A stretch of 64,000 nucleotides of DNA from a virus (lineage: Duplodnaviria; Caudoviricetes). Below are positions 1,189 through 49,813 of this stretch, in pieces. Made by a program: the position numbers and the translations under genes. The DNA lies in IMG/VR virus record IMGVR_UViG_3300037247_001786, positions 32,001 to 96,000 of that record. One strand, 5' to 3'. Position 1 is the first letter of the stretch. Every line of letters begins with the position of its first letter. A model generated the notes under the pieces. It was given only the letters and a program-made list of their open reading frames with translations, was not told where the DNA came from and did no database searches.

Positions 1189-1800
1189 TTGAGCACCTGG
1201 TACCAAAAATGTATGCCAAAAATAAAAGACGTAAAAAAACATCTTGCAGGAACTCTTGAAGAAATAAAAACATCTGACAATATAGATTCTCTATATGTTT
1301 GGGGATCATTTGTAGATAATTATGACAACTCTAATTTTAGAATTAGAGATATCGATATTATCGCCGTAACAGATTTTAACTCTGGCGATTTAACCGCTAT
1401 AGATAAAAGCATTACCACTCAAAAACTTTCAGATGAAGAGCTAGAAGATCAAGGATATAATCCAACTGCTATAAAGTTTAGTAAAGATTTTTTAAAATTA
1501 AAAAAATATAATATTGATCATTGGGTTATTTCATCTGATAAAAAACTTCTACATTGGGGACCTATTCCATCAAGCAAGGAAGAGTCAGAAGCCATAAACA
1601 AAGATGCCTCAATTCATGCATTTAATCAAACTGGTTATCGTAGAGAAAAAATAAATAAAGCGGCACAAGAGGTAAGAGATAATTGGTATGAAGAGTATCA
1701 TACTTATATGAATAAAGTTTTTGCAGATATGCCTTCAGGTTGGTATTTAAGCGGAACAGAAAATATTGATGAAATAATTGAAAAAGCTATAAAGTTTTAA
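1189..1800 (+). CDS. pol-beta-superfamily (minimal) nucleotidyltransferase
   Basis: YVWGSF...RDIDIIAV fits the hG[GS]x9-13DxD NTase motif; GAGGAG RBS before a TTG start. Confidence 0.7.
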   Translation: MSTWYQKCMPKIKDVKKHLAGTLEEIKTSDNIDSLYVWGSFVDNYDNSNFRIRDIDIIAVTDFNSGDLTAIDKSITTQKLSDEELEDQGYNPTAIKFSKDFLKLKKYNIDHWVISSDKKLLHWGPIPSSKEESEAINKDASIHAFNQTGYRREKINKAAQEVRDNWYEEYHTYMNKVFADMPSGWYLSGTENIDEIIEKAIKF

Positions 1801-1804
1801 AAAA

Positions 1805-2146
1805 TTATAGTGTCCCAGCAATCCAGAAACCAAACTTATTCATTGTCAACCATAGCCTGCTTCCGTTAGAAACGAGAGTTATATTTTCTCCTGGGACATC
1901 AGCATATAAACCTTGCCCCAAAATGGGAGAAGAGGTATCTATTATCTGGTCTAAAATATTTCCAGGAACGATGTTCATAGCTAAAATATCCTGAACACAA
2001 AAATGAAATATCACGCCTTTTGGAGCGTTATCTGGCAAAGTATAAGAAACTTGAGTTAAAGTATCTCTATTAGAAAAAACCCCGCCTGAGTCGGATAGTG
2101 TTAATTGATAATCTTGTATTTTATTTATTACACATTTCGTATGCAT
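1805..2146 (-). CDS. small beta-rich protein, paralog of 2158..2505 and of the C-terminus of 2522..4231 (putative virion surface/receptor-binding module)
   Basis: Shared pattern SG.vFsN...v.(y/l)tLP......G..f.F.V....ADvPGE.ItLvSNG...W.....FG.W. Confidence 0.6.
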   Translation of the reverse strand: MHTKCVINKIQDYQLTLSDSGGVFSNRDTLTQVSYTLPDNAPKGVIFHFCVQDILAMNIVPGNILDQIIDTSSPILGQGLYADVPGENITLVSNGSRLWLTMNKFGFWIAGTL

Positions 2147-2157
2147 TTTTTATTTCC

Positions 2158-2505
2158 TTATATTTCCACTGTCCAGGTGCCGAAAATGTCCATAGGATAC
2201 CATTCGTTAACGCCATTTGAAATAAGAATTATGGTCTCGCCCGGAGCATCGGCCCATATATATTTATCACTTATCATTGAAGGATTAAAGTCAACCCCCC
2301 TTATAGTTCCTATTCCTGGGTCTATTCTAAATTGTTGAGCAGTTGGAACAGAAAAAATATAATAAATTCCATTAGAAGTGTTTTCAGGAAGAAAAAGAGT
2401 GACCGTTTCCCCTGCTCCAAAATTTGTAAAAACTGTTCCTGATTCTGATTCGAGAATAGTATAATTCGAAGTTTTATTTGCAATTGTTAAAGTTGTTGGT
2501 ATCAT
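2158..2505 (-). CDS. small beta-rich paralog (putative virion surface module)
   Basis: ESGTVFTNFGAGETVTLFLPENTSNGIYYIF...ADAPGETIILISNGVNEWYPMDIFGTWT aligns by eye with both neighbours. Confidence 0.65.
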   Translation of the reverse strand: MIPTTLTIANKTSNYTILESESGTVFTNFGAGETVTLFLPENTSNGIYYIFSVPTAQQFRIDPGIGTIRGVDFNPSMISDKYIWADAPGETIILISNGVNEWYPMDIFGTWTVEI

Positions 2506-2521
2506 ATTTTTCTCCTAAGCG

Positions 2522-4231
2522 TTATAACCCTTCTGTCCAAAATCCAAATTTACTAATTACGAACCAGTTACTTACTCCGTCGGAAACAATAGTTAATGAA
2601 ACACCGTCCACGCCCGCATATTTATATTTTCCAACACCTTGCCCGCTGGTGTCTATAATAGTATCAGCCCCGTCAGGCTGTAGAAATAATAGATAATTCT
2701 CAACAAGAACAAAAGAAAAATATATCCCTGGGGTTGATGCCGATGGTAAATTTATAGTGACGAAACTTCCGGCTCCCTCATTTGTATGAACGGTTCCTGA
2801 CTGGCCAACCGTTAAATCGTTTGCCGGAACTCCATCCGTAGGATGAGCGATAACGTCGCTAATAGTTTCAGTAACAAAATTATCACAACTTGGATAAGGG
2901 GAACAGATGCATGATGCCAAACAATCCTCTTGAGTTAAATGAGTAGATAAAATCTGCAAGTTCTGGTCATCTGTCAACTCATTAGAACAAGAACAAGTTC
3001 CTAAAGAAATATTTTCGATACAATACCAGGTTTCAGAACAGACGGTGATATTATCTCCACAATATTGCCATGCAATAGATCCATCATTATAAGTAACCGT
3101 TGCACACCAAGAGGTATTACCTCCTGTCTCATTGCAATCGGGAACTACAGAAACTATAAAAGGAACATCATCATTTGTGTATTGAAAAGTATCGGTTTTG
3201 CCGCATTGATGACCACCTCCCGTAACACCTGGACCTTCTCCAAGACAAGTACTAACACATCCACTCCTCCATAATACTTTATCGGAGTCTATAGGTTCGT
3301 TACAAGGGTCTCCATATGCTGATGAAAATACTATTATCTCGTCCCTTGTATCATTAGTAGTATAACTTATTGTGGCTGTAGGTATTTTTATCTCTTGACA
3401 ATCTAAATCTCTTGTTTTCGAATTCCCAATTCTAGAAATATTAAAATCAGGACCCAATACATAAAATGCATAAGCAGTCGATCTGGTTCCACGACAATTA
3501 GGGACAGTTCTTATTCCTAAAGGTAAATCAGATTCACGAATAGAAAAACAATCATGCCAGACAAAATCCGGATTCCTACCGACATTACTTCTTGTTAAGT
3601 ATAAAGACTGGTTACTATTACCATATCTTTGAATATCAGGATTAAATCTCGTCGGAGGATATGATCCTGGATATCTAGTGGTTTCATTAGTACTAACGCA
3701 TCCAGTATCATACAATACAGTTCCTGAACAATCGGTTCCATCAAAATTACCCATTACCTGTATTCTATCAGGGACCCAGTAGGTAGTGAATTCTACATAA
3801 ATATCAGTCACTCTGTCTCCAGGTGTATCGGGATCAACAATCCATTCTGGAAAACAACTAATAGAAGAAGTTTCTACAACAATTGACTCTATATCACTGA
3901 AGAAAACTTCTCCATTTATAATAGATCTAGCCTGTATTAAAATAACGCCCTCTTTACCGGCAAAAGGTATGATAGAGAATAAAGTATCTCCTGCACTGTA
4001 AATTCCAGATGCCGTTGCCGAGTTGACCCTCTGGTTTAATGAAGAATTATTAAAAGAATAGTATACTTCCGTACTTGTAGGAATAGCGTCGGTGTTTAAA
4101 ATTCTCCAAGACACTGACGAATTTTGTAGATGTGCCACTATTCCTGGAAAACTTACAAACTCTAAAAAGGGAAAATCTCCACAATTAGGTCTATCGCAAG
4201 GATTAATTAATTCTATTCTATGTATTGCCAT
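2522..4231 (-). CDS. Cys-rich multidomain putative virion protein with a C-terminal copy of the paralogous module
   Basis: Two internal repeats of the type D.I.V....gdcsgt.VLy.tGCVST, a Cys-rich stretch, and the C-terminal TNEGAG...SKFGFWT module. Confidence 0.6.
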   Translation of the reverse strand: MAIHRIELINPCDRPNCGDFPFLEFVSFPGIVAHLQNSSVSWRILNTDAIPTSTEVYYSFNNSSLNQRVNSATASGIYSAGDTLFSIIPFAGKEGVILIQARSIINGEVFFSDIESIVVETSSISCFPEWIVDPDTPGDRVTDIYVEFTTYWVPDRIQVMGNFDGTDCSGTVLYDTGCVSTNETTRYPGSYPPTRFNPDIQRYGNSNQSLYLTRSNVGRNPDFVWHDCFSIRESDLPLGIRTVPNCRGTRSTAYAFYVLGPDFNISRIGNSKTRDLDCQEIKIPTATISYTTNDTRDEIIVFSSAYGDPCNEPIDSDKVLWRSGCVSTCLGEGPGVTGGGHQCGKTDTFQYTNDDVPFIVSVVPDCNETGGNTSWCATVTYNDGSIAWQYCGDNITVCSETWYCIENISLGTCSCSNELTDDQNLQILSTHLTQEDCLASCICSPYPSCDNFVTETISDVIAHPTDGVPANDLTVGQSGTVHTNEGAGSFVTINLPSASTPGIYFSFVLVENYLLFLQPDGADTIIDTSGQGVGKYKYAGVDGVSLTIVSDGVSNWFVISKFGFWTEGL

Positions 4232-4232
4232 T

Positions 4233-4649
4233 TTATTGTCTATTTATTCCCATTAAATTATTATTACCTTGCTCTTTAATTACTTTAAAACCAAATTTTT
4301 CATAGAAATTTGTTAGAGCTTCTAAAGGCAATCCATCAAATCCCATAGGAGAAGCATTTAAATAGATATAATTAACATTTCTTTTAGAAAGCTCCTTCAT
4401 CGCTTCTTCAATTAAGGCAGTTCCATACCCTTGACCCATATTAGCAGTATTTACTTCTATATGTTCTATTTTTGCTATCCAATCATCTTCATCAATTCCA
4501 ATTTTTTCAAATTCTTCTGGAGACATATCTTCTGTAAATTCATATCTTGGAGAAGTTTCAGTTATAACGACACTTCCATAAGGAGAAGAAATAGTTACTC
4601 TATCCTCGTCGGTATTGTAAGAAAATTGTGCTATTTTATACCAGTTCAT
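4233..4649 (-). CDS. GNAT-family acetyltransferase with MNWYKIAQ leader
   Basis: Acetyl-CoA motif A IEHIEVNTANMGQGYGTALI and motif B LTNFYEKFGF. Confidence 0.8.
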   Translation of the reverse strand: MNWYKIAQFSYNTDEDRVTISSPYGSVVITETSPRYEFTEDMSPEEFEKIGIDEDDWIAKIEHIEVNTANMGQGYGTALIEEAMKELSKRNVNYIYLNASPMGFDGLPLEALTNFYEKFGFKVIKEQGNNNLMGINRQ

Positions 4650-6436
4650 GAATACCTTATTACCTTTTCCGCTTCTGGAAATTTTCGCTGTAACAATTGT
4701 TGTAAAAATTGAGGAATTTCTCTAAATCTGCTCATCCCTTCATGAGGAGACATAATAGAGATAATTTTTTCACTAGGGCTATATCTTCCTGTATATAACT
4801 TATCTAAGCCAGAATCGAGTCCCCAATTTCCTCTAGACCTATGAGTCTGATCCGTTCCAGTTTCTGGTCTTGTTTCTATCTGCCCGTTATTATAAACCCA
4901 CATTATATTAGGATTATTAATAGAATAATTCTCATTTGGTTCGTGTCCTAATGCTTTATTTTGTTCTTTATAATAAATATCATGGCCTATGCCTGTATAG
5001 AATCTTTCTTTTCCTTTTAAATCTTTAGAATCCATTACCTCTATTTGTTGTGCTATTTTATACCAGTTTTTACAAGAAGAATAACTAAAATCAAATGACG
5101 TTTGTCCTTCAGGCATATATATTAATTTTAACATATGTTCTGCAAAACTTTTTATAACAGGAGCATTTTCTCCATAAGAAGAAGCATTATCTCTTATCTC
5201 TCCTTTTAATATATTTATTAATTCCTTAAGACCAGGTTTTTCTCCACCATAGCCGTCAGATCCTTCTATGGTTGACAATAACTCTGTATCTATCCAACTC
5301 GAATGCCAACTTATATCTTCCGCATTTTTTGGACCATATTCATAAGTCATAGTTTCAAAAATTATACCCATCAATCTACCTATATCAAGATTGTTAGACC
5401 ATTCAATAAACTCATCTGATTCTGTTCCTTGTAGCCCATAATCTCCTGCTAAATAATTTTTATAATTATCTTGTTCACTTGTATATCCATTTTGTAAATC
5501 CTTCAATTGTTCGGCAATAGTACTTAAATCGCCCCCAATATCCCACTCAGAAGTAGAAGTCCCACCAAGTCTTTCAGGAGTATTTTTGCCATACTCTACC
5601 CATTCCCTTATCATATCTCTATGTTCTTCATCAGGAGTACTGTTAGAATTGCCTTGTATCTGCTCGACAATTTTCCCAGTCCCATCTGTCTCTATTGTAG
5701 CTTTAGGATTATTTTGAGGGTCCCTTAAAGAATAAATAATACTTTTTTCGCTAATAACATCTTGACAATAATCACCGACACAATGATTCATCATATTTCC
5801 TTCTGCTAACAAATCATTCTCACTTATAACTTTTTGGATAGTCCATCCTTGCCACTTCTTATCATTTTTCCATTCTGGACCAAAGACTATTAGTTCAGAT
5901 TTAGTAGGCTCGTATTCTTTTCCTGCACCTTTACCAGCCATCATTCTATGCCACTCAGCAGATGCGTCGATCGCCTGTTCTAATGAGAAAGAAGCAATAT
6001 CAGCTTGATTTTGAGACCTAGTATACCAGTCATCTATTTCCTGGATTACATTAGTGTTAGAACCATAATACCCATATGTAATAAAATCTATATAATCTTG
6101 AAAATCTTCTGGAGAAAGTTGATTTTCTGGATCCATCGAACTTTTTCTTATTTTTTTAAATTGTACTAATAACCATTTTGAAAAAGAAGAATCATATCGA
6201 TTTGCAATATTTTTTTCTGTAGGCAAATAAGGGTCTATTTGTTGTGGAGATTGGAACTGTTGAAGTTGTTGTAAGTTTAAAGATGGATTTTTTCTAAATT
6301 CATTAGTTAATATTTGTCCGAAATTAGGATCTAAAGAGCTAATATATTGCACAATATCTGGGGACGCTCCGAGGCTTTCCAAATAACCTAGCATCGCTGT
6401 CGCTTGAGCAAATATATTTTTAAGATACCAATTCAT
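4646..6436 (-). CDS. PcfJ-like domain protein; MNWYLKNIFAQ leader and an internal second NWYKIAQ module
   Basis: DLLAEGNMMNHCVGDY...IYSLRDPQNNPKATIE fits the PcfJ-like motif; KNWYKIAQQ occurs about 135 aa from the C-terminus. Confidence 0.7.
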   Translation of the reverse strand: MNWYLKNIFAQATAMLGYLESLGASPDIVQYISSLDPNFGQILTNEFRKNPSLNLQQLQQFQSPQQIDPYLPTEKNIANRYDSSFSKWLLVQFKKIRKSSMDPENQLSPEDFQDYIDFITYGYYGSNTNVIQEIDDWYTRSQNQADIASFSLEQAIDASAEWHRMMAGKGAGKEYEPTKSELIVFGPEWKNDKKWQGWTIQKVISENDLLAEGNMMNHCVGDYCQDVISEKSIIYSLRDPQNNPKATIETDGTGKIVEQIQGNSNSTPDEEHRDMIREWVEYGKNTPERLGGTSTSEWDIGGDLSTIAEQLKDLQNGYTSEQDNYKNYLAGDYGLQGTESDEFIEWSNNLDIGRLMGIIFETMTYEYGPKNAEDISWHSSWIDTELLSTIEGSDGYGGEKPGLKELINILKGEIRDNASSYGENAPVIKSFAEHMLKLIYMPEGQTSFDFSYSSCKNWYKIAQQIEVMDSKDLKGKERFYTGIGHDIYYKEQNKALGHEPNENYSINNPNIMWVYNNGQIETRPETGTDQTHRSRGNWGLDSGLDKLYTGRYSPSEKIISIMSPHEGMSRFREIPQFLQQLLQRKFPEAEKVIRYS

Positions 6437-6444
6437 ATTATTTT

Positions 6445-6666
6445 TTATAGCAAATCAATCTTACTTTGCAAGTTATTTTTCATCGCTACTGTTTTCGTTT
6501 TCATGCCCTCAAACTGGGTCTTCCGTTCAGTATTACCGTTAGTTTCAGCATTTGCAATTTTGGTATTAAGTTTTTGTATTCTTGCGTTCATATTAACTAT
6601 CCTACCTTCTGCATCTGCTTTGCTCATTGCGTTGACTATTTTTCCATTTACTATTTCAAAACTCAT
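6445..6666 (-). CDS. small coiled-coil hypothetical protein
   Basis: AGGAG RBS; heptad-like sequence. Confidence 0.65.
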   Translation of the reverse strand: MSFEIVNGKIVNAMSKADAEGRIVNMNARIQKLNTKIANAETNGNTERKTQFEGMKTKTVAMKNNLQSKIDLL

Positions 6667-6668
6667 AA

Positions 6669-6731
6669 TTATTCTCCTATTGGGCTATATTTAACTTTAT
6701 TTTTTAATTGTGCTATTTTATACTAGTTTGT
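6669..6731 (-). pseudogene. decayed leader-bearing mini-ORF (T-N-stop-Y-K-I-A-Q-L-K-N-K-V-K-Y-S-P-I-G-E-stop)
   Basis: ATG replaced by ACA and TGG by TAG relative to the three intact copies; otherwise identical through the GCA CAA codons. Confidence 0.45.
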
Positions 6732-6732
6732 A

Positions 6733-7137
6733 TTATTCTAAATACCATTCTTCATTTTCTTGGGTGTCTATTATGTTTGAAATATTTACAGTTCCTATAT
6801 CTAATATTGCATATACAGTGCTCGCTATACTAGATGTGTATTTATTATCAGATATATTTTTAAAGATAACTGCATCGTGACCCGCATTTTTAGCATTATT
6901 AATAATATCTTTTTGAGGCACTGTTATCCACGATTCTCCTTGAGCGTCCAACATAAACGGATTATTAAGATTAACAGATATTTCATAAATATATCTACCA
7001 TATTCTTCAGCAGCAAATACATCGTCTGTGAGGAATAACGCATCTCCCGTTTCAGAACTATTAATATTTAAATTATCACCTCGATAGTTAGAACCATGAA
7101 AAAGAGTAATATTTTGTGCTATTTTATACCAGTTCAT
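6733..7137 (-). CDS. ADP-ribosyltransferase-like domain protein with MNWYKIAQ leader
   Basis: LFHGS...ALFLTDDVFAAEEYG..IYEISVNLNNPF pattern typical of phage/polyvalent-protein ART domains. Confidence 0.6.
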   Translation of the reverse strand: MNWYKIAQNITLFHGSNYRGDNLNINSSETGDALFLTDDVFAAEEYGRYIYEISVNLNNPFMLDAQGESWITVPQKDIINNAKNAGHDAVIFKNISDNKYTSSIASTVYAILDIGTVNISNIIDTQENEEWYLE

Positions 7138-27654: not shown

Positions 27655-27894
27655 ATGCCTAATTGGTATGAAAAAGCTAAAGCACAGCAACCTGACACTT
27701 CAAGGTATGTAGGCACTATGATGGCTGACATCGAGATTCCTGCCCAAATAGATAAAGAACAAGAGGTGGCAACTGCTAAGCACGTATTAGATAGTTTTCT
27801 TCCTGAATCTACGGATGCTAGTGCTAGAACTGCTATAGAATCAACCGTTAATATTCAAGTTATAGGAGTCGAACAGCGTGGTCAATTGGTATAA
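27655..27894 (+). CDS. small protein with MPNWYEKAKAQ leader
   Basis: Leader resembles MNWYKIAQ. Confidence 0.65.
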   Translation: MPNWYEKAKAQQPDTSRYVGTMMADIEIPAQIDKEQEVATAKHVLDSFLPESTDASARTAIESTVNIQVIGVEQRGQLV

Positions 27895-28294
27895 ACAATC
27901 TCGTAGGGGGAATATTCCACTAATGGATCAAGACGAAAAAGAGAGGAGAACTACTGACATTGGTATTGTCCAGCCTTTTCTAGGCTCTAATGACAGACAG
28001 ACTAGCGATGGTAAGGGATATCCAAAAGGAATTAGTTCAGATGATGATTATGTAGATGATAAAAATGGAGGATCAGGACATAACGAACTTCCTTCTGGCA
28101 GAACAATTCTTGACGACGACATTTCGGCTGACCCAGGTCAGGGCGAGGGGGCTAATGATGAACGTTTTACCGACCCTATTGACCAGGCACCTAAAAAGAA
28201 GATGGAACCTGCAGGACCTCATAATATGCAAAGGGGTGGAATTTTTGACGATGTGGCTAAAAAAACAAGAATGCGAAGTTTAAACAAAATATAA
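27878..28294 (+). CDS. disordered acidic protein with MVNWYKQS leader
   Basis: AGGAG 9 nt before GTG; NWYK leader. Confidence 0.65.
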   Translation: MVNWYKQSRRGNIPLMDQDEKERRTTDIGIVQPFLGSNDRQTSDGKGYPKGISSDDDYVDDKNGGSGHNELPSGRTILDDDISADPGQGEGANDERFTDPIDQAPKKKMEPAGPHNMQRGGIFDDVAKKTRMRSLNKI

Positions 28295-30290: not shown

Positions 30291-30989
30291 ATGAGTATTA
30301 TCGAGAGTCTAACGAAAAAATGTAAATTTTGCGGTGACTATTTCAGGTCAACTAAAAAAAGAAGAACATATTGTTCAGACGGATGTTTTGATGGTTCCGT
30401 AAAAGAAAGACAGAAAAGATACAGAGAAGACAATAAGAAAGAAATTTTTAAAAGAAAAACAACCTGCAAGTATTGTAATAATAAATTTAAAATAGAAGAA
30501 CTTAAAGAAAGATGTTGCGATAGTAAAGATTGTTTAAAAGAGAAAAAAAAGGAGAAACAAAGAGTATCTTGGAAAAAGCATTATAATAAAAATATAAAAA
30601 AAACTACCAAGAAATTTAAAAAGAAAGATGCTGAGAGTAGCCGAAATTATAGGCGAACCCATACGGACGAAATTAACAAGAGAGACAGATCCCGTAAAAA
30701 AGAAAAAAGAGATTGGGTCGATAGTTTGAAAAAAAAATGCAAATGTAGTAGATGTAAAGATGATAGACACTTCTGTTTAGAGTATCATCATTTGAAGCCT
30801 GAAAATAAAAAATTTGCTATCTCGCAAGCTATAAGACAGGGATATGGCAAAGAAAGTATTTTAAAAGAAATAGAAAAATGTATTGTACTTTGCAGTAATT
30901 GTCATAGACACCTGCATTATCTAGAAAAGGAAATAGAAAATTGGAAACCATCAGAAGAATGGTTAAATAGTAAGGAGATTTTAGTATGA
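30291..30989 (+). CDS. HNH endonuclease with zinc-finger N-terminus
   Basis: CKFCG, CSDGC, CKYCN and C-terminal CSRC...LEYHH...EIEKCIVLCSNCHRHLH. Confidence 0.8.
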   Translation: MSIIESLTKKCKFCGDYFRSTKKRRTYCSDGCFDGSVKERQKRYREDNKKEIFKRKTTCKYCNNKFKIEELKERCCDSKDCLKEKKKEKQRVSWKKHYNKNIKKTTKKFKKKDAESSRNYRRTHTDEINKRDRSRKKEKRDWVDSLKKKCKCSRCKDDRHFCLEYHHLKPENKKFAISQAIRQGYGKESILKEIEKCIVLCSNCHRHLHYLEKEIENWKPSEEWLNSKEILV

Positions 30990-31144
30990 AAATTTTTAAA
31001 ACAGCAAATTATATAAAAATAGCAAAAGAACAAGGGTGTAGAGGATGTGGCAATTTAGCTGTTGGTCATAATGGCCTTTGCCAGAAATGTCAGGAAGAAG
31101 AGGAAGGAATAAAAGAAAGAATGGATAGTTCTAAATATGAATAA
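30986..31144 (+). CDS. 52-aa zinc-binding mini-protein MKIFKTANYIKIAKEQGCRGCG...LCQKC (not in ORF track)
   Basis: Own translation; AAGGAG RBS; start overlaps the previous stop. Confidence 0.6.
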   Translation: MKIFKTANYIKIAKEQGCRGCGNLAVGHNGLCQKCQEEEEGIKERMDSSKYE

Positions 31145-32944: not shown

Positions 32945-35302
32945 ATGAACAACAATCATCAAAGCTGGTACAAAAAAAATATTACCTCACAAAATAACCG
33001 CGTTAATGACGTTATAGATTGGGTTGATGACGACACCTCCGAAGAAATGGCTCAGATTATGAATCCTGAAATAGTAGATTTTGATGCTATAGAAAGGCAA
33101 CGAGCAGAAAACCTACCTTTAGAACAAGGAGAAATGCAAACTATTACAGAAGAAGAAATAGACGGCTATATCGTTGATGACCTGATAGAGCAAGATGAAA
33201 GATATATTAGAGACGAAAAAATGGAGCAAGATTATTTTGATGGAAAATATATTCCATCAGAAGAGGAACTTAAAGAAAGAGGTATAGAGCCGGTTATCGA
33301 CGATGAAACAGTTGTCGATGAGAATCCAGATGACGCTCCGGAGTTCGGAGAAGATCATATATCGGCAATGCAGTGGGCTATAGAGAATAATAGAGTTGTA
33401 AAGTTATCCTATCTAACTCTTGGTAAAAAAAGGGGAAGAGGAGGAAAACAGCACTTAAAAAGAGAAATAAGTGATGACAGAATCCCTGGAACAGGGGTTA
33501 ATATATGGAGAATAGTTGAACCTCATTATATTTATCCGGCGAGCAATGGACACGACATCCTAATAAGTTACGATAGATCAGTAAGGCATATCAGAGCTTT
33601 TAGAGTGTCTAATGTAACAGGAGTGGAATTTACTAAGAAAAGATCAACTAATGAACCTTCATATTTTAAACCAAGAGTTAAAATTAAAAATCCTGATGGG
33701 TTAGGGCAATCAGGTAAAATAAAAGGAATAGAAGCTATGAATGAAAATATTTTTCAAAATTTGAAAGAGATTGGTGATGATTTAGTATCAAAAGGATTAT
33801 CAAAAAATGCTGAATCAGTAACTAAAATGATGTCTCATTTGCTTAACATTAAGACAGCTCAATATGTAGGTCCTCAAGGATACTGGATCAGGCAAAAAAG
33901 ATGTTGGGATAATTGTTATAGGCATAAAAGAACAACTAGCCCAGAGAAAGCTGCTCAAACTGTATGGATGGAGTGCCGAGACGAATATAACGAGGCTATA
34001 AATAATAACTCAAGCGGTTGGGAAAAGTATGCTGAAGAAGATGCAGATCTTTTTAAATATGCTAGTAAGGAACAAGAAGATTGGGTGAAAGAAGAAAATA
34101 AAAAATTTGCTGAATCTGTTGATAAAAAAATAACAGAAGGAAAGTCTCATGGTATGTCTATTTGCTTAACTCTTGAACAGAGGAAAAATAGATATAACGA
34201 TATTCTTATTGCAGATGCCGATAATTTATCAAAAATAGCTGAAACACTAAAAGAAACAGGACAAGAGGAGCTAAGCGAGAAAATAGCAACAATTTCTATT
34301 GAATTATTAAAAAAAGCACAATTTGGAGGCGGGTTCGAAGGTGCAATGAATAAGCTGAGGAAATATAACCCTTTTTCAAGTAAGAGCCGAGCGAAAGGTC
34401 ACTCTGGTGACGTTATGACTCGTCTCAAAAATATCGCGATGCAAGCAGATAACTTGTCAACTCAATTTAATACTTTGCAAAGAGATGCCGCTCAATACGG
34501 GCAAGAGTATTCTCAAGAGCAACAGTCTTATAGAGATTTTGATCAACAACAACAAGCCAAAAAACAGCAAAGACAAGATATGTGGGGAAAAGTAAAGGAT
34601 GCTCCTGGACAAACATGGAACGCTCTGAAACAAAAAGGACAAGAGGCTTATCAGAACTTCTCAAATCCTCCTGGGCAAGCTCTTAGCGAAAGCGATACTG
34701 ATATTAAAGAAGCACAATATTCAGACAAGACAACAGGTGTAGTTTCCTTTATAAAAGATTTAAGATCACAACTTGAAGAATTTATGACTAATTTAGCAAC
34801 AGAAAAAAGTGCATTAAGTCAAATATCTGCCCAATCGACAGATACTTCATCAAGAGATAGAGCTGCTGGAGCATCTGTAGCTATTGAACAATTTATTACA
34901 AAAGCTAATCAATTTATATCATCTACGAGAACAGTTCAAGACGCTTTTAACGCAATCCCATCTATGGTAGAAGGTTTAAGTAAATTCTCTAATGATATAA
35001 ATATGATACAAAGAGGAGAGACTCCTCCAATAGATAGCGATAGAGATGGAGTGCCAGACAGTATAGATGTTGATAATAACCAGAATATGATAGCAGACGA
35101 AGAGGAGATAGCCACACCTGAAGAAGAGTTGGCTATACCTGAGAATATCCCACTTACTAGCAATCTAACAGGGGATAAACAACTAGATTTACAACAACTT
35201 ATGGAGAACGAAGATCTAAAAAGTTATCTAGCGTCATTGATGGGAATGTATAATAGTAAAATGAGAACATTAAAAAGACAACAGGCGAAAGAACAAATAT
35301 AA
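32945..35302 (+). CDS. large putative internal head protein containing a WYL-like domain and K-x-A-Q motifs
   Basis: AIENNRVVKLSY...RIVEPHYIY...DILISYDRSVRHIRAFRVSNV (WYL pattern); KTAQY, KKAQF, KEAQY; possible internal start at 33737. Confidence 0.65.
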   Translation: MNNNHQSWYKKNITSQNNRVNDVIDWVDDDTSEEMAQIMNPEIVDFDAIERQRAENLPLEQGEMQTITEEEIDGYIVDDLIEQDERYIRDEKMEQDYFDGKYIPSEEELKERGIEPVIDDETVVDENPDDAPEFGEDHISAMQWAIENNRVVKLSYLTLGKKRGRGGKQHLKREISDDRIPGTGVNIWRIVEPHYIYPASNGHDILISYDRSVRHIRAFRVSNVTGVEFTKKRSTNEPSYFKPRVKIKNPDGLGQSGKIKGIEAMNENIFQNLKEIGDDLVSKGLSKNAESVTKMMSHLLNIKTAQYVGPQGYWIRQKRCWDNCYRHKRTTSPEKAAQTVWMECRDEYNEAINNNSSGWEKYAEEDADLFKYASKEQEDWVKEENKKFAESVDKKITEGKSHGMSICLTLEQRKNRYNDILIADADNLSKIAETLKETGQEELSEKIATISIELLKKAQFGGGFEGAMNKLRKYNPFSSKSRAKGHSGDVMTRLKNIAMQADNLSTQFNTLQRDAAQYGQEYSQEQQSYRDFDQQQQAKKQQRQDMWGKVKDAPGQTWNALKQKGQEAYQNFSNPPGQALSESDTDIKEAQYSDKTTGVVSFIKDLRSQLEEFMTNLATEKSALSQISAQSTDTSSRDRAAGASVAIEQFITKANQFISSTRTVQDAFNAIPSMVEGLSKFSNDINMIQRGETPPIDSDRDGVPDSIDVDNNQNMIADEEEIATPEEELAIPENIPLTSNLTGDKQLDLQQLMENEDLKSYLASLMGMYNSKMRTLKRQQAKEQI

Positions 35303-35388: not shown

Positions 35389-36147
35389 ATGGATATGCAT
35401 TTTATTCAAAACAAGATCAGCGTTGGCGTTACAAAAACTTTTGATGACATAGTTAATGATTATGTTGCAAAGAAAAACGCCCAGGTAAAAACAGCTTCTG
35501 TTGAAGAAGTAGTGGCAGAAGTTAAAGTGGCTGAGGCAGATGAAGCCGCTTCAAGTGGACAATTAGATGTTGAACCTCTTCATCAAGAAGGCGAATCAAC
35601 GAATCAAGATTCTGTTGCTGGTGGAAAATCAGACGGCGACGGTGGAAAAGCTCCTGCTAAGAAAGCCGATGAAGAAGGCGAAGATAGCGGACAGCCAAAA
35701 GCCGAAGGTTCTGATAAGTTTACCAACGACCCTAAAGTAGACGCTGATGCTAACGCTGATGCTGATGTCAAGATAGCAGAAGCAAAATGCGAAGAATGCA
35801 AATGCGATCCTTGCTCTTGCGACGAGAAAGAAGCTAAGACTGATGAAGACGAAGAAGAAGTTAAAGAAGCTGGCATTAAGGGCAATTGTTCAAAATGCAG
35901 CAAACCTAACTTCCTTTGCAAATGTGACAAAGGTTCTGATGACTCTGATGACTCTGACGACTCCGATGACTCCGATGACTCCGATAAGGAAGATAAGGAA
36001 GATAAAGAAGCATCTGACGATAAGACTGTAAAAGTAGCTTTTAAGAAAATTGCTAATTTAACATCGCCAGAAAAAGCAAGACTCGGCAAGTACTGGAAGA
36101 ACATCTATCCAGATTCATTCGTTGATGCTATGTTGGCTGACAAATAA
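35389..36147 (+). CDS. acidic low-complexity putative internal head/scaffold protein
   Basis: Repeated K-x-A motifs, Cys clusters and DSD tandem repeats at about 35935-35985. Confidence 0.7.
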   Translation: MDMHFIQNKISVGVTKTFDDIVNDYVAKKNAQVKTASVEEVVAEVKVAEADEAASSGQLDVEPLHQEGESTNQDSVAGGKSDGDGGKAPAKKADEEGEDSGQPKAEGSDKFTNDPKVDADANADADVKIAEAKCEECKCDPCSCDEKEAKTDEDEEEVKEAGIKGNCSKCSKPNFLCKCDKGSDDSDDSDDSDDSDDSDKEDKEDKEASDDKTVKVAFKKIANLTSPEKARLGKYWKNIYPDSFVDAMLADK

Positions 36148-36163
36148 TTTATAACAGTTATTA

Positions 36164-36871
36164 ATGGAGTTTATTATGGCGATTATACCTGTTGGTAAAA
36201 CGCGTTTAATGGTTTCGCAAGTAATATCTACCCCTACATCACAGGGGTATGACGATGGCGTACCTAAACTTACCCCCGATGATATTGATGTTGAGGGAAT
36301 AGGGAATGACTTGCCAGAAATTCCAGAAGTCCCAGAAGCCCCTGAATCTCCAGAAGAAGGAATTCAGGGAGTCGCTGAAGATAATCAGCTAACTTTAACA
36401 GATTATATTTTTAAAACTCTTGAGGGGTTTGGTTATCCTGGTAGACGATTAGAAGAATTTAAGAAGAAATTTGTTAAAGAAAGCGTATCTCCAGATGGAA
36501 CAAAAGATATTAAGATAGAGATCCCTGATAGATATTATCCCGATAACATGGGTAATATAAAAACAGTGGAAACAGAGGAACTTGGTAAATTTGTTCAAGA
36601 AATTAATAGTAAATTTGGTCTTAATTTCAATGGTGCTGAACGGTCTGAAGGAAAATGGCTTGTTAACTTAACATCTGCTAAAAGAACAGAAGAGGATGAG
36701 GGAGGTATTGTTAGAGATAATCTTGACGAAGTTTACGGGACTCCCTCGGGCAATGGAAAGCCAAGTGTTAAAAAAGAGACAACTGTTCAAGCTTTTTCTC
36801 AACAAGAGTTAATAACAGCATCAAAAGACGATAAACTTATAGAAAATTTACAAAAATTAAATGGAGAATAA
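36164..36871 (+). CDS. hypothetical head-module protein
   Basis: Acidic ORF between terL and portal. Confidence 0.7.
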   Translation: MEFIMAIIPVGKTRLMVSQVISTPTSQGYDDGVPKLTPDDIDVEGIGNDLPEIPEVPEAPESPEEGIQGVAEDNQLTLTDYIFKTLEGFGYPGRRLEEFKKKFVKESVSPDGTKDIKIEIPDRYYPDNMGNIKTVETEELGKFVQEINSKFGLNFNGAERSEGKWLVNLTSAKRTEEDEGGIVRDNLDEVYGTPSGNGKPSVKKETTVQAFSQQELITASKDDKLIENLQKLNGE

Positions 36872-37700
36872 TATGCTTCGCAAAACAAAATCTCAAAATA
36901 TTTTAAATCTCTTTACTATGCCAGAAGAACCTGATAAAGTCGCTGAATTTACAGAAACAAAAAACATTAGCGATAAAGTGTCAGAAGGCAGATTAAGAGT
37001 AACTAGTAAACAAAATATTTCTGAAAATTTCTTCGGATTAGGGGAATTGGCTGAGAACGTTGCAATTGCTCAAAAAGTTTCTAAAGCTCAAGACAATGAG
37101 AACAGAAACAGCAAAGAGCACTTGGCTATATTATCAGAAGAGCAAAAGAGTAAAAGCCTTTCTGGTTTCAATCCTATGACTTCTAATGGCAGTAGTATTA
37201 TATCAGCGAATGCTGGAGGCATTACCGACATGGGCGGACCTCAGAAACAGATTAAGATACCTACATCGAATAGTATTTTTAATCCTGATAGAAATGCGAT
37301 AGAAGCGAGTAAAATTGATAGCAAAACAGAAACTAAAATAGAAAAAGAAAAAATTGCTACAAATAGAAGGTTGTCAGAGCAAAAAAGAATGGACGACATG
37401 GTAGAGTCTTTGAGAACTACTAATCAATCTAAAAGTTCATCTGCTCATAGAACTGGAACTGGCGATCTAGAGAGAACAGATTTTAAATTATCTCGAAATA
37501 ATATAAGCATTTTTGATTCAGGAGATTTCGATAGAGTTCCTGAGAAAACAAGAGGAGAAAAAGTCTCTGAACAAGTAGCTGAAAAGAATGCTCAAATTGA
37601 TGAGTCTTGGAGACAAAATGGAAAATCGTTGAAAAGTAGAGAAGTTACAAATAGATTTTTTGACAGTTTGATAGAGAAATTAGAATCTGATGGATGTTAA
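36861..37700 (+). CDS. hypothetical head-module protein
   Basis: Overlap-coupled ORF. Confidence 0.7.
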   Translation: MENNMLRKTKSQNILNLFTMPEEPDKVAEFTETKNISDKVSEGRLRVTSKQNISENFFGLGELAENVAIAQKVSKAQDNENRNSKEHLAILSEEQKSKSLSGFNPMTSNGSSIISANAGGITDMGGPQKQIKIPTSNSIFNPDRNAIEASKIDSKTETKIEKEKIATNRRLSEQKRMDDMVESLRTTNQSKSSSAHRTGTGDLERTDFKLSRNNISIFDSGDFDRVPEKTRGEKVSEQVAEKNAQIDESWRQNGKSLKSREVTNRFFDSLIEKLESDGC

Positions 37701-38916
37701 TTATGTCCAACAAAGTTTTGGGAACGGTTTAATAGAACTAGAAACATCTATTCCTGAACTTAGAGCTTTGCCTCCTGAAGAGGCTGATCTTCAGATTCAA
37801 CAAACTAAACGAATATTAATGGACACTCAATTAAGATTGAGCAAAGCGTCAAGTAGTATGGCGGGTATAGAAAAACAGATTAATAATACGGTTGATACGG
37901 AACAACAAGCAACAAATCAACAAGTTATTACTAATCTTACTAGTAATATAGAGGGAGAAGCTATGAGTAAAAATAAAAAAGAAATTAAAGCTTTTAATCT
38001 AAAACAAGCTCAATTTGAAGCTCCGGCTGTTCCATTTGGATCAGATAGCTTTAATGACGCACCTGAACTAGGAGAAGAGAACTTTAATAGCATACAAGAA
38101 ATAAACCAAGAAAACGGACTAGATAGAAAAGCTTTTACAGATTTCTTATCTGGACTAGCATCAGAAGACGTTAATGGATTATTCCAATTTGTAAAAACAC
38201 ATTCTTCTAGCGGTAGCGAAGAGGTTGTTGATAAACTTACAGAACAATTTAATATGATATTTGAAAATCCTATGCATGTTGACGAATCAGATCAAATTGC
38301 AGGACAAATTTATGATCTATTAGATGACGAAATAAAAACTATTCCGTCTAATGCCGCAATGGGAATTCCCACCACTATATCAGAAATTAATGACATTATA
38401 AAAAAACTTGCTGAAGAGCATGTTAATAAAAAAACTAAAATAAGCTCATTTAATTTGAAGAAAACTGCTCAACATAAAACCGTTGAGAACGTTATTCTTC
38501 ATGGACCACATAATATGAAATTCGACCCTTTCCTCAGACAACCTGTTTCTGATTGGAGTATTCTTGAAAGAAATAAAGGTTTCGGATTAACATTTGATGA
38601 CGTTTGGGATGTAGATTATGAAGCTATATGGCGTGGATCTGTCATGGATAAGTATTCTCGCCCTTATAGAGATAAAGAGGGTAACTGGGTCGGTGGGTAT
38701 ATAAACAAAAGATTTGAGGTTGATAGGAATATCCCTGAAACAAATAATTTACAATTAAAACCTGGGCAATTAAGAAGACCGACTCCTCCTGAATATGGAC
38801 TAATAGAATCTCGCTTACAAGCTGCAAGAGCTAATGGCGATATCGAAGGCGGACCAGATGTAAATAGAAGTAAGCCTTTTAATTGGAAAGAAGCTTCATC
38901 TAAAAAAAAAAGTTAG
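37690..38916 (+). CDS. hypothetical head-module protein ending at an A10 slippery run
   Basis: FNLKQAQF and FNLKKTAQH motifs; in-frame GAGGGAG-ATG internal start at 37963; ends TCT AAA AAA AAA AGT TAG. Confidence 0.7.
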   Translation: MDVNYVQQSFGNGLIELETSIPELRALPPEEADLQIQQTKRILMDTQLRLSKASSSMAGIEKQINNTVDTEQQATNQQVITNLTSNIEGEAMSKNKKEIKAFNLKQAQFEAPAVPFGSDSFNDAPELGEENFNSIQEINQENGLDRKAFTDFLSGLASEDVNGLFQFVKTHSSSGSEEVVDKLTEQFNMIFENPMHVDESDQIAGQIYDLLDDEIKTIPSNAAMGIPTTISEINDIIKKLAEEHVNKKTKISSFNLKKTAQHKTVENVILHGPHNMKFDPFLRQPVSDWSILERNKGFGLTFDDVWDVDYEAIWRGSVMDKYSRPYRDKEGNWVGGYINKRFEVDRNIPETNNLQLKPGQLRRPTPPEYGLIESRLQAARANGDIEGGPDVNRSKPFNWKEASSKKKS

Positions 38917-39379: not shown

Positions 39380-41680
39380 ATGGCTAATATAAAAATGAAA
39401 GTATCAGATAGTAGTCCAGAGGGTAGGAGAAGATTAACGACTGCCACAGGTGGATACAATATAGGCACATCAGGCAAAGAAAATTCTGATACGATAGGTA
39501 GTAATCGAAAATATATTTCATCTCAATCAGTAAAAGTACCAATAACTAAAAATGCTCAATTTGCAGGATCAGCAGCGAACGCTGTTTGGGCACAACCAAT
39601 GTTTTTCTCACCTTTACATACCCCACAAAATTGGCAAATAGCTAGTAAAAGAAGAGAAATATATCAATGGTCAAGATTTTATTACATGAATGAACCAAAG
39701 GTCGCTGCAGGCGTTGACTTCTATGCTAATTTTTCTATGAATGGATTTAAACTAGAATGTAAAAAGAAAAAAATCTTAAAGTATTTCGAAAGATTAGTTG
39801 AAAGATTAGACTTATCTGAAAGGCTTAATGAGATAAGCCATGAATATTTTTTATTAGGAGATGTATTCCCATTTTTAGAAATAACTTGTCCTCAGTGTCA
39901 AGGAGGAGGATTTACAAAAGATGGAAAACCGTGCAATCATCCAGATGGAAGTTTTAAGTCTGTTAAAATTTTAAATCCAGACTATATGGATGTTAAGACA
40001 AATAGTATCGCAAACGATCCTAAATTTTTCTTAAAACCAGATGAAGAACTTAAGATGCTTGTTTCTAGAAAAGAACCAAAAGAACTATACGAAAGTCTTC
40101 CTCAAGATTTAATCGATCTTATCTCTACAGGGCAAGATATCCCGTTATCAGATAGATCTATAAGCCATATAAGACATAATGCTAGTCCTTATGGAGTATA
40201 TGGCGTATCTATGCTACAAAGACTGTTTACTATGTTGGCTTATAAGACAAAAATCATGACAGCCAACTGGATAGTTGCAGAAAGATTAATTCTTCCTGTC
40301 AGAGTAGTAAAAGTTGGAGACGAGAAAAGACCAGCCACAGAAGAAGATCTCCAAGATGTCGTAAATCAATTAGGGGCTGTTGCTAATGACCCCAACTTAA
40401 CGATCGTCACTCACCATGCATTTGATTATGAATGGTATGGGGCTTCAGGTAAAATTCATAATATCACTCAAGAGATGGAACATATCGGCAAAGAGATACT
40501 TGATGGACTGATGCTTAATCAAGCTTTACTTAATGGAGAAATGGGAGGTTATAATAGTGCTCAAGTTGGAATAGAGGTTCTTATCCGAAGACTTGATAAT
40601 TGGCGTAACAAGCTTAAATCTTGGGTGGAGAAACATATTTTCCTTCCAATTGCTATGATGCAAGGCTTTATAGACGAACAAGAGTCGGACATGCTTGGAG
40701 AGACAGTTTACATGTATCCGAAATTAGTTTGGAATGATTTGCAATTAAGAGACAAAACAAATAAAATACAAACTTTGATGCAATGGTATGATAAGGGAGG
40801 GGTTTCTGCTCAAACTATATGTGAAGAACTAGATTTAGATTATGATGCCGAAGTTGAGAAAATAAGGGAAGAACAAGTTATGGCAGGACCTCAAGGACAG
40901 ATGCCAGGTGGAGGCAATATGGGAACTATGGGCATGGGAGACATGGGTGGAGGAATGCCAGGCGGAGACATGGGAGGAGGAATGCCAGGCGGAGATATGG
41001 GAGGAGGAATGCCGGGTGGAGGAATGCCAGGCGGAGACATGGGTGGAGGAATGGCAGGCGGAGGAATGGGAGCTGCCCCAGGAATGGGAGCTGCAGCAGA
41101 GAGTTCTTTGCCTAAGATAACTAAAAGAGGCGGAGGCGGTGGAAAAGAAGAAGAGCAAGAACAAGCTCCTCCTCAAATGATAAAATTTACTAAATTAGAA
41201 CAACAAATGTATAAAATACTTCAACAGATTCCAGCTCCTCATGAATTGTTCGCTCAATATTCAGTTAAAGTTCCTGGAGAGCAAAGACCTTTTGTTTTAG
41301 ATTTCGCTTACCCTCAGATAGGAATAGGGGTAGAAACAGATGGAGCTATCTGGCATCAAAGAGAGGACTTCCAACAAAGAGATCTAGTAAGAGACCAAAA
41401 ATTAGCCAATGTTGGTTGGAGAATATTAAGATTTAGAGATGATGCGGTTGATGAACAATCAGATACAGTTCGAGAGGTTATCTCTAAAAATATTATAGAA
41501 GCAACAAAAACTAAAAAAGCAGCTAATGACAAAAACCTAGTTATGAAATACGCTTCAATAGAAGAAACGGGAAAAAATCCAATTTATGATTATATGCTCG
41601 CTAATGAGGGTAAAATAGGAATTAATATTATTGAATTGCCTGGAAAAATGGGACAATTATTATTGATAGGAACAATATAA
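39380..41680 (+). CDS. portal protein with Gly/Met/Pro repeats and a C-terminal DUF559-like nuclease domain
   Basis: Position between terL and protease; IRHNASPYGVYGVSML and ERLILPVRVVKVG portal-type motifs; C-terminal LDFAYPQIGIGVETDGAIWH...RDQKL...GWRILRF. Confidence 0.8.
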   Translation: MANIKMKVSDSSPEGRRRLTTATGGYNIGTSGKENSDTIGSNRKYISSQSVKVPITKNAQFAGSAANAVWAQPMFFSPLHTPQNWQIASKRREIYQWSRFYYMNEPKVAAGVDFYANFSMNGFKLECKKKKILKYFERLVERLDLSERLNEISHEYFLLGDVFPFLEITCPQCQGGGFTKDGKPCNHPDGSFKSVKILNPDYMDVKTNSIANDPKFFLKPDEELKMLVSRKEPKELYESLPQDLIDLISTGQDIPLSDRSISHIRHNASPYGVYGVSMLQRLFTMLAYKTKIMTANWIVAERLILPVRVVKVGDEKRPATEEDLQDVVNQLGAVANDPNLTIVTHHAFDYEWYGASGKIHNITQEMEHIGKEILDGLMLNQALLNGEMGGYNSAQVGIEVLIRRLDNWRNKLKSWVEKHIFLPIAMMQGFIDEQESDMLGETVYMYPKLVWNDLQLRDKTNKIQTLMQWYDKGGVSAQTICEELDLDYDAEVEKIREEQVMAGPQGQMPGGGNMGTMGMGDMGGGMPGGDMGGGMPGGDMGGGMPGGGMPGGDMGGGMAGGGMGAAPGMGAAAESSLPKITKRGGGGGKEEEQEQAPPQMIKFTKLEQQMYKILQQIPAPHELFAQYSVKVPGEQRPFVLDFAYPQIGIGVETDGAIWHQREDFQQRDLVRDQKLANVGWRILRFRDDAVDEQSDTVREVISKNIIEATKTKKAANDKNLVMKYASIEETGKNPIYDYMLANEGKIGINIIELPGKMGQLLLIGTI
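40937..41065 (+). repeat. coding tandem repeat GDMGGGMPG (about 27-nt unit, ~4 copies)
   Basis: GGAGACATGGGTGGAGGAATGCCAGGC-like units inside the portal gene. Confidence 0.85.
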
Positions 41681-42099
41681 TGAAAATATTTAATTTAAAA
41701 CTTGCTGGCCCTAAAAAAATTAAAGATAGGGGTATCAATTGGAAAGAAAAATATCATGAAAAATCAGTTGGACTTAAAAAGAAGTTTGATAAGGAAATAG
41801 GACCTCAAGCTTATATGAGATTTGAGGGACATGACTATACCACCAATTCAGATTATTTTGTAGTAGTTGGTCCTGCTGTCACAAAAGACCTTAAAAAAAG
41901 ATATTTTGCGGGAATTAAAAAATTACCTGATGACCCTAAAGCTAAAGTATATGCTCCTTCAGGGGAATATTTTTCTACTGTAGTTGCAGCGTATAGCCAT
42001 GCTGCTGATAAATGGAGAATTCCATTTCCAAAAGGAGTCCCTGGATATAATCTAGGTCATCTAGCGAATATAGATATACCAAGGCACGTAAAAGGATAA
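41680..42099 (+). CDS. hypothetical protein (MKIFNLKLAG N-terminus)
   Basis: Start overlaps the portal stop. Confidence 0.7.
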   Translation: MKIFNLKLAGPKKIKDRGINWKEKYHEKSVGLKKKFDKEIGPQAYMRFEGHDYTTNSDYFVVVGPAVTKDLKKRYFAGIKKLPDDPKAKVYAPSGEYFSTVVAAYSHAADKWRIPFPKGVPGYNLGHLANIDIPRHVKG

Positions 42100-49630: not shown

Positions 49631-49813
49631 ATGAGAGAAATAGGGGACTGGATTACTTTAAATCATAAAAAAGAAGATCATCCTATGATCGGAGATGAGA
49701 GTTGGGATCATTATATTAATTGTCAAATAGTTTTTATTGGGATGGATGGGAGATTTAGAGTAAGAAGAAAACATGGATATGAAAGTATCGTAGAAGAGAG
49801 TGAAATTATTTAG
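49631..49813 (+). CDS. small hypothetical protein
   Basis: GGAG RBS; coupled to the next ORF. Confidence 0.5.
   Translation: MREIGDWITLNHKKEDHPMIGDESWDHYINCQIVFIGMDGRFRVRRKHGYESIVEESEII

Follow-up and report, generated by a model that had tools for sequence, protein, structure and literature searches.

An eight-residue N-terminal leader shared by unrelated proteins of phage G-related megaphages as a candidate capsid-targeting tag

Introduction

The internal proteins and Alt of phage T4 carry an N-terminal capsid-targeting sequence (CTS) of 10-20 amino acids (aa), a peptide that attaches to the prohead core and that gp21 cuts off (PMC7411985). Among T4-type phages the internal proteins form a highly diverse set that has this sequence alone in common (PMC3012670). 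The subject of the present work is an element of a similar kind, the short N-terminal leader MNWYK-x-A-Q (below also called the tag), which begins otherwise unrelated proteins of an uncultivated phage known from IMG/VR record IMGVR_UViG_3300037247_001786. This single viral record of 460,978 bp has direct terminal repeats and a G+C content of 34% and is estimated to be 100% complete. The window, i.e. the whole stretch of 64,000 nucleotides that was analysed, comprises its bases 32001-96000; coordinates are those of the window unless marked as genome positions. To judge by sequence comparison, the phage is a distant relative of Bacillus phage G, because its capsid protein shares 55% identity with phage G gp27 and its portal and protease also match, while little else of the head module does. 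At BLAST level the two phages have only the portal, the protease and the capsid protein in common, and a profile search of the genome gave no match to the Pfam family Phage_capsid.

The CTS of the T4 proteins IPI, IPII, IPIII and Alt (Mullaney & Black 1996) is, like the leader described here, a short N-terminal peptide of about 8-10 aa on unrelated proteins. It ends in a head-protein processing motif, as the present leader would if K-x-A-Q is cleaved; diverse cargo stands behind one leader in both cases, here additionally in variable tandem arrays; and an ART is among the cargo, which in T4 is Alt. The two systems differ in the sequence of the peptide, MKTYQEFIAE with an L/I-x-E site in T4 and MNWYK-x-A-Q here, with no similarity between them. 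They also differ in the lineage of the protease, which here does not match Pfam S77 and forms a fusion with a scaffold of ~1600 aa, and in the repertoire, which here consists mainly of enzymes and is far larger (about 19 per genome; in relatives, at least 65 families of bodies). A further difference is the presence of internal copies of the tag at module junctions. The resemblance would be one of function and not of descent.

In phage SPN3US the protease gp245 is proposed to be directed into the core by its own propeptide, and A-X-E is the motif at which many head proteins are cleaved (PMC7411985). Such phiKZ-like giant phages resemble the system proposed here in that many of their head proteins, including the portal, share one short cleavage motif and in that propeptides are proposed to serve prohead targeting; their propeptides, however, are ~110-130 aa long and show no short common leader, the motif ends in Glu, and the lineage is unrelated. 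For phiKZ gp175 the cleavage motif is reportedly S/A/G-X-E. Herpesvirus assemblin, which is made as a scaffold fusion, cuts at [V/L/I/Y]-x-A|S, and assemblin and the phage prohead proteases are related Ser/His enzymes. By analogy with this motif, a cut in the present leader would follow Ala and precede a small polar residue, although here the Ala has a Lys two residues ahead of it and is usually followed by Gln.

An N-terminal signal of fewer than 30 residues suffices to direct a reporter into the capsid in the case of P1 DarB, whose cargo is an anti-restriction enzyme (PMC9024508). That signal is found on one protein and has no cleavage motif, in contrast to the family-wide tag described here. 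Polyvalent proteins carry 2-15 effector domains per polypeptide or are fused to MuF or the portal (Iyer et al. 2017, PMC5512222). They have in common with the present system the theme of phage effectors delivered with the DNA, as we infer it here, as well as, probably, the ART-PolyVal domain, and GNAT, kinase and methyltransferase domains are among the cargo here. The difference is that the present effectors are separate small genes, each with its own 8-aa tag, and that the few two-module fusions keep a tag at the junction. The link to polyvalent proteins, which an earlier reading of the window from its letters (the sequence-only reading) had drawn, is weaker than it was put there: the ART match lies below Pfam's cut-off, most tagged proteins are single-domain, and PcfJ, which it had also named, is not a term in PMC5512222. 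No such leader is described in the polyvalent-protein paper (PMC5512222), and a literature search for 'MNWYK' returned nothing relevant and one for 'NWYK' only an author's name. We consider it an even call that this is a functionally T4-like CTS system in an unrelated lineage, in which the sequence, the presumed motif, the scaffold-fused protease and the larger enzymatic repertoire would be new.

Occurrence of the leader in the source genome

The leader is strongly concentrated at N-termini. Among the 680 predicted proteins of the genome (143,093 aa), 15 of the 21 NWY occurrences fall within the first 13 residues, where 6% would be expected (P about 3e-14), and the same holds for 19 of the 32 occurrences of [NSG]WY (6% expected, P 2e-15). 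About 19 open reading frames (ORFs) genome-wide start with M[NSG]WY[KLQ]. The pattern M-x(0-3)-WY-K-x(1-4)-A-[QS], by which the sequence-only reading had expected the leader to stand out, is found in 6 proteins as against a mean of 0.006 and a maximum of 1 in 500 shuffles. Counted by position in 100 instances, the leader reads M, N (88%), W, Y, K (94%), any residue, A (65%; I 15%, S 11%) and Q (57%; K 23%), with W and Y fixed by the selection of the instances. The looser pattern M-x-h-h-[KR]-x-[AS] begins 16 ORFs of the genome where about 1.2 are expected; 12 of these are xWYK proteins, and the others include the head-maturation protease fused to its scaffold (the protease-scaffold) and a 52-aa ORF of the head region. 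The loose leader variants that had been proposed at 27655, 27878 and 32945 are present, the second of them as VVNWYKQS, whereas the supposed variant at 1189 is doubtful (Table 1).

Three tagged genes lie together at 4233-7137, and the starts quoted for them earlier are all present, including the internal copy in the PcfJ-like protein. The GNAT body matches PF13508 with 31.6 bits (gathering cut-off 27) and PF00583 with 26.0 bits (20.7), and the PcfJ body matches PF14284 with 49.1 bits (25), so that both names are well founded. The name is weaker for the ART-like body, which reaches 29.4 bits against PF18760 (E 1.6e-6), just below the cut-off of 31.2, with the H-G-S/T motif present; a precomputed PF18760 label is attached to this protein and to three orthologues. 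The AF2 model of the ART-like protein, built from a 6-row alignment that was too shallow, has a pLDDT of 38. In a tblastn search against cultivated phages the ART-like protein had no match and the PcfJ protein was matched via its PcfJ domain only. A PcfJ-like paralogue with identical layout is encoded at genome positions 2105-3811 (PF14284, 49.4 bits).

The C-terminal module of the PcfJ-like protein, here called IGH, belongs to a family of ~125 aa with invariant Y, G-H, W, H, G-R and S, which in the relatives described below usually occurs as a stand-alone tagged protein. It is the most expanded tagged family, with eight consecutive paralogues at one locus (L018) and further members at L019, L008 and L026. 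The IGH module was modelled by AF2 with a pLDDT of 70; it matches no Pfam family, and a fold search of the PDB and of AFDB clusters gave no significant match. A resemblance of its fold to phosphohistidine phosphatase was weak and unconvincing.

Distribution and cargo in relatives

Relatives were collected by a back-translated 24-nt pattern, which yielded 33 loci on 27 IMG/VR contigs of 26-548 kb. Together with the source genome these 28 records contain 111 exact MNWYK starts, and the reversed-pattern control contains 0. In 596 Gb of prokaryote genomes the 24-nt pattern gave 11 loci, of which only two are real (short contigs of metagenome-assembled genomes with 3-4 tandem MNWYK ORFs) and the others are short or out-of-frame chance matches. 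On these searches the tag is specific to the group of phages related to phage G. Tandem arrays are common, with up to 16-17 tagged genes in a row (L018, L029) whose stop and start codons abut or overlap.

The bodies behind the leader are as unrelated as the sequence-only reading had stated, and the leader is portable: when 88 tagged proteins from the 27 contigs are clustered by BLAST without their first 10 residues, 65 clusters result, of which 50 are singletons. Recognised bodies are GNAT, AAA_33/Zeta-type kinases, methyltransferases, ART-PolyVal, SLT, HicA, Tad6, cREC, poly(A)-polymerase-type nucleotidyltransferase, GHKL ATPase, DUF5661 and glucose-6-phosphate dehydrogenase (G6PD), the last as a full-length protein of 440 aa tagged MNWYKWAQ (L002:11652-12971, plus strand; G6PD_N and G6PD_C, E 1e-46 to 1e-63). 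Two multi-HTH proteins are tagged in the source genome. A simple label of host-modifying effectors does not fit cargo such as G6PD or the HTH regulators.

As the tag directly adjoins the first strand of complete known domains, e.g. MNWYKKAQ|NKKTLYIMRGIAGSGKST and MNWYKWAQ|PQKNNSDAFVFFGASGDL, it is best seen as an add-on outside the fold. Two-module fusions are limited to PcfJ+IGH and a few proteins of relatives, and the other tagged proteins mostly have one recognisable domain. Internal copies of the leader stand at the module junctions of large tagged proteins (residue 635 in L014, residue 328 in L026 and the PcfJ-like protein of the window). Within the cargo bodies K.AQ is not enriched, with 3 occurrences against 2.8 expected in 17,163 aa. 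The lack of enrichment and the copies at junctions fit a trimming of the cargo and not a degradation of the kind that scaffolds undergo.

Conservation of the peptide

A conserved stretch at the start of many genes could also be an element of the DNA or RNA, such as a junction for the recombination of cassettes or an enhancer of translation initiation, with the peptide incidental. The three copies in the GNAT/PcfJ/ART cluster do carry an identical stretch of 21 nt, a fourth copy persists as a dead scar at a cassette boundary, and the close packing of the tandem arrays would suit an exchange of cassettes as well. Apart from this cluster, third codon positions vary freely between copies (AAT/AAC, TAT/TAC, AAA/AAG, GCA/GCT) at constant M-N-W-Y-K-x-A-Q, in the genome as in the relatives, and the DNA upstream is unrelated from copy to copy, which argues for selection on the peptide. 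Moreover, the internal copies keep the peptide without an ATG, and orthologues of the ART-like protein alter the first half of the tag (MNWYNNIKLAQ, MKIIKSKNYIRIEKKAQ) and keep K-x-A-Q. A nucleic-acid element alone is clearly disfavoured because of the synonymous variation and the internal copies without ATG, and we regard it as very improbable. The dead relic at 6708-6728 looks like the scar of a lost cassette and, together with the identical 21-mer, suggests recent recombination at the leader, which may offer a convenient junction for the gain and loss of cassettes. Such recombination is more likely a by-product, useful for shuffling.

The two tagged multi-HTH genes of the source genome (genome positions 100179-100216 and 101659-101696, i.e. 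68179-68216 and 69659-69696 in window numbering and past the window end) are both preceded by an identical stretch of ~55 nt (ATGCGATACAAGATAGGCAAATAGAGGTTTTCTTTTATTTTCGCGGAATAAATAGTT), possibly a duplicated promoter or leader. A shared late promoter AATAGAGG upstream of several head and tagged operons was rejected, as its 49 occurrences compare with 79 in the reversed control.

The K-x-A-Q motif in head proteins

The second half of the tag recurs in the head module. Genome-wide there are 35 occurrences of K-x-A-Q where 17 are expected, with 7 of them in leaders and 13 in six adjacent head genes, for which about 0.5 would be expected. When about 8000 gapped patterns of the type a.bc were ranked without bias by their enrichment in eight head-module genes, K.AQ came third (12 against 0.6 expected, P 3e-12) and K.AS fourth. 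Only two patterns ranked higher, both from a Gly/Met repeat of the portal, so that K-x-A-Q heads the list for the head module if low-complexity repeats are disregarded.

In the portal protein the motif lies where the first 56 residues, which are variable, give way to the conserved body. Eleven relatives have kept it as P-[IL]-T-[KR]-x-[AS]-Q, and in them an invariant QPMFFSPLHTPQNW follows about 14 residues (13-15) later. The portal itself is unusual in combining its Gly/Met-rich repeat (GGMPGGDMGG...) with a C-terminal DUF559/MTES_1575 restriction-endonuclease-like domain.

The protease-scaffold starts like the tagged proteins

The protease-scaffold, whose gene lies between those of portal and capsid, matches phrog_18299 (E 3e-8) and is 35% identical to phage G gp19. 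Its start M-x-x-x-K5-x-A7 has the same register as M-N-W-Y-K5-x-A7-Q. In an alignment of 13 homologues (A3), M1, K5, A36, H102, S153 and H179 are invariant and A7 is nearly so, and a second site of the form h-K-x-A-S is kept ahead of the catalytic domain. Further sites of the protein read IKTAS, LKTAT, KKFAQ, TKEAQ and IKTAS, and the internal sites KKFAQ, K-x-AQMM and IKTASKE are conserved between relatives with an identity of only about 56%. Of the 27 contigs with the tag, 15 encode a homologue, among them every one of the four whose completeness is 90% or more. A co-fold of the protease domain (residues 41-275, with alignment A3) with the tagged ART-like protein scored 0.00 and is uninformative either way. 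A strict co-variation of the leader variant with position 4 of the protease-scaffold was rejected, being only partial across relatives. At two loci (L045 in G025, L046 in G012) the frame of the head protease has an intein-like insertion right after the catalytic GTSMGC, which brings it to about 2300-2380 aa as compared with about 1850.

All of these links to the head module would fit equally well if the tag docked to the head or scaffold and stayed uncleaved, K-x-A-Q being a binding motif and the tagged proteins assembly helpers or decoration instead of injected cargo. Trimming just 7-8 residues off the protease-scaffold would seem to serve no function unless they are a docking element, and the AF2 model that includes the leader renders it as a short helix (pLDDT about 61). 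Such uncleaved docking nevertheless appears rather unlikely to us. In head proteins the motif is found at borders of variable and conserved parts, such as at residue 60 of the portal, it is frequent in acidic scaffold-like proteins, which normally need to be removed, and the variable length of the first half in the ART orthologues, with K-x-A-Q kept, suits a cleavable propeptide better.

Leader genes among head genes in relatives and the case of phage G

A variant leader, MK[IL][IV][KR]x[AS], is found in two relatives, G016 (12 copies) and G007 (14 copies), as against 0-1 in each of the other 14 records and likewise 0-1 for the control. In G016, 10 of the 12 variant-leader genes lie within 9 kb around the genes for capsid, decoration and protease-scaffold and on the same strand, and two of them stand between the protease-scaffold and decoration genes. 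The same genome has an MNWYKKAQ gene directly after the capsid gene, and its protease-scaffold starts MLIKVAL. In G021 and G006 the capsid gene is followed, 2-6 kb downstream and on its own strand, by MNWY genes. The bodies behind the variant leader in G016 (L079, G016:206001-220000) and G007 include a rhodanese-like domain and DUF5662.

Many small head-module ORFs of phage G (L059, 1-30000) start with a basic leader of the RLKK/RLIK type (gp8, 9, 10, 13, 17 and 20), and its head proteins are rich in K-x-A-S, including RKMAS at residues 55-58 of the portal, which matches the place of the portal site described above. To judge from these sequences, the RLKK/RLIK starts may be the equivalent of the tag in phage G. 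The words 'N-terminal' and 'propeptide' do not occur in the main text of a 2025 paper on phage G (PMC12484599).

Proposed function of the leader

The best explanation for these observations, to which we give about an even chance, is a T4-like capsid-targeting tag that is cleaved at K-x-A-Q and loads enzymes into the head. The first half of the tag, N-W-Y with K5, would dock the cargo to the assembling prohead core, and this core would be the 1834-aa protease-scaffold with its N-terminus of the same kind. The second half would be a site of the head-maturation protease, probably cut as K-x-A|Q; a position after Ala is probable because K5 and A7 are conserved and residue 8 accepts Q, S, T, L and G. 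Docked cargo would in this way become enclosed in the head and trimmed, and could leave it with the DNA at infection.

A tag for packaging and cleavage had been proposed in the sequence-only reading. The analysis supports it in that the module is portable and ends in a motif enriched in head proteins, that the protease-scaffold has a tag-like start and that leader genes lie beside or between head genes in relatives; docking, packaging, cleavage and injection themselves are what we infer from this. Extended to the lineage as a whole, the proposal would be that phages of 170-550 kb possess an 8-residue, protease-removable address tag in at least two forms (MNWYK-x-A-Q and MKIIK-x-A), which loads a large, fast-changing set of stand-alone enzymes and regulators into the capsid for delivery with the DNA, the set comprising ARTs, acetyltransferases, kinases, HicA-like and Zeta-like toxins, an anti-Thoeris Tad6 homologue and G6PD. 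We hold this wider statement, the lineage-wide tag and its set taken together, only tentatively and somewhat below an even chance.

Several observations weigh against a cleaved capsid-targeting tag. A distance of 20-400 kb separates most tagged genes of the source genome from the head module, and those of the GNAT/PcfJ/ART cluster are encoded on the other strand. The leaders of the PcfJ-like protein (NWYLKNIFAQ) and of the ORF at 27655 lack a strict K-x-A-Q. Position 4 of the protease-scaffold reads Y, M, D, T, E, R or I across relatives, whereas the leaders stay WYK. The protease-scaffold has no match to Pfam Peptidase_S77 or Peptidase_S78, nor to PDB sequences when searched with the protease profile, and its identification as a protease is based on the PHROG match, synteny and the invariant His and Ser residues; in the search with PF03420 (Peptidase_S77) the genome had no match, and the control genomes of the same search had none either. 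An M-x-WYK start is absent from phage G, the only cultivated relative, and so no cultivated member of the group carries MNWYK. Finally, G6PD and HTH regulators are odd as cargo of a head.

Some of these points would be accommodated if the tag addressed a machine outside the head, such as a host AAA+ protease for which it is a degradation signal, a chaperone or a modifying enzyme, with the match to the head motif being coincidental or secondary. N-W-Y-K-h resembles an N-terminal recognition motif of ClpX; a short lifetime would suit toxin-like cargo (ART, HicA, Zeta); and neither the metabolic and regulatory cargo nor the distance of most tagged genes from the head genes would be surprising. 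This explanation is unlikely in our view but deserves to be taken seriously. No gene was found that consistently adjoins the tagged arrays, and a phage-encoded ClpP as reader of a degradation signal was rejected, as the genome encodes none. The same-register K-x-A that head-module proteins, the portal site and the start of the protease-scaffold have in common would be left unexplained, as would the interleaving of leader genes with head genes in G016.

If the tag does target the capsid, it would be a marker, readable from sequence, of the proteins that uncultivated megaphages package, and dozens of uncharacterised families would become candidate effectors of the first minute of infection, in anti-defence, host takeover and the breaching of the cell wall. 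For an unstudied prohead protease, the specificity K-x-A|Q/S/T would follow. The T4 solution of a short leader with swappable cargo genes would then have arisen independently and on a much larger scale, and the tag could be used as a tool to load foreign proteins into large capsids. Should the capsid reading fail, a conserved 8-residue tag on >65 unrelated families would still call for an explanation.

Features of the window and neighbouring genes

Table 1. Tagged genes, leader copies, head-module genes and landmarks of the window, in order of position
Feature	Position	Strand	Remarks
'MSTWYQK' ORF	1189..1800	+	TTG start, W-Y match only; probably not a member
GNAT acetyltransferase, 138 aa	4233..4649	-	starts MNWYKIAQ; Pfam profile match
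PcfJ-like protein, 596 aa	4646..6436	-	starts MNWYLKNIFAQ; PcfJ module fused to second tagged module
IGH module	4646..5074	-	C-terminal part of PcfJ-like protein; alignments A4, A5
Internal leader copy KNWYKIAQ	5048..5071	-	residues 456-463 of PcfJ-like protein, junction of its two modules
Dead leader relic	6708..6728	-	TGG -> TAG, no ATG, stop 13 codons past leader; just after ART stop codon
ART-like protein, 134 aa	6733..7137	-	starts MNWYKIAQ; PF18760; first domain strand NITLFHGS directly behind tag
Leader-coding stretch of ART-like gene	7114..7137	-	21-nt core identical to copies at 4626 and 5048
Large terminase	25074-26948		landmark gene
79-aa ORF	27655..27894	+	starts MPNWYEKAKAQ, loose leader variant; two genes past large terminase
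138-aa ORF	27878..28294	+	GTG start, VVNWYKQS, loose leader variant
52-aa ORF	30986..31144	+	starts MKIFKTAN, fits M-x-h-h-K-x-A
785-aa head-module protein	32945..35302	+	start MNNNHQSWYKKNITSQ, SWYKK near start; four internal K-x-A-Q sites
Four acidic scaffold-like genes	35389..38916	+	three with K-x-A-Q sites (KKNAQ, EKNAQ, FNLKQAQ, FNLKKTAQ)
Portal protein	39380..41680	+	phrog_16240, E 1e-49
Portal K57-N-A-Q60	39548..39559	+	candidate maturation site within ITKNAQ, residues 55-60
139-aa protein	41680..42099	+	starts MKIFNLKLAG; K-x-A-G kept; G021 orthologue starts MTNILKYAG
Head-maturation protease + scaffold fusion, 1834 aa	42390..47894	+	starts MAIYKTAT; N-terminal ~260 residues = protease family match
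Decoration-like protein	47942-48529		landmark gene
Major capsid protein, 290 aa	48615..49487	+	without delta domain; phage G gp27 homologue

Directly downstream of the tagged GNAT gene, on the minus strand at 1805-4231, three consecutive proteins of 113, 115 and 569 aa have a similar C-terminal domain (...VSNG..W....KFGFW..G), the longest of them being Cys-rich. Two genes downstream of the capsid gene, with a 60-aa ORF (49631-49813) in between, an untagged ORF of 103 aa (49813-50124, plus strand) starts IFYHGTS and resembles the starts of the tagged ART-like bodies. An intein that includes a LAGLIDADG homing-endonuclease domain (Pfam Intein_splicing, LAGLIDADG_3) splits the large subunit of ribonucleotide reductase (17625-21308, plus strand).

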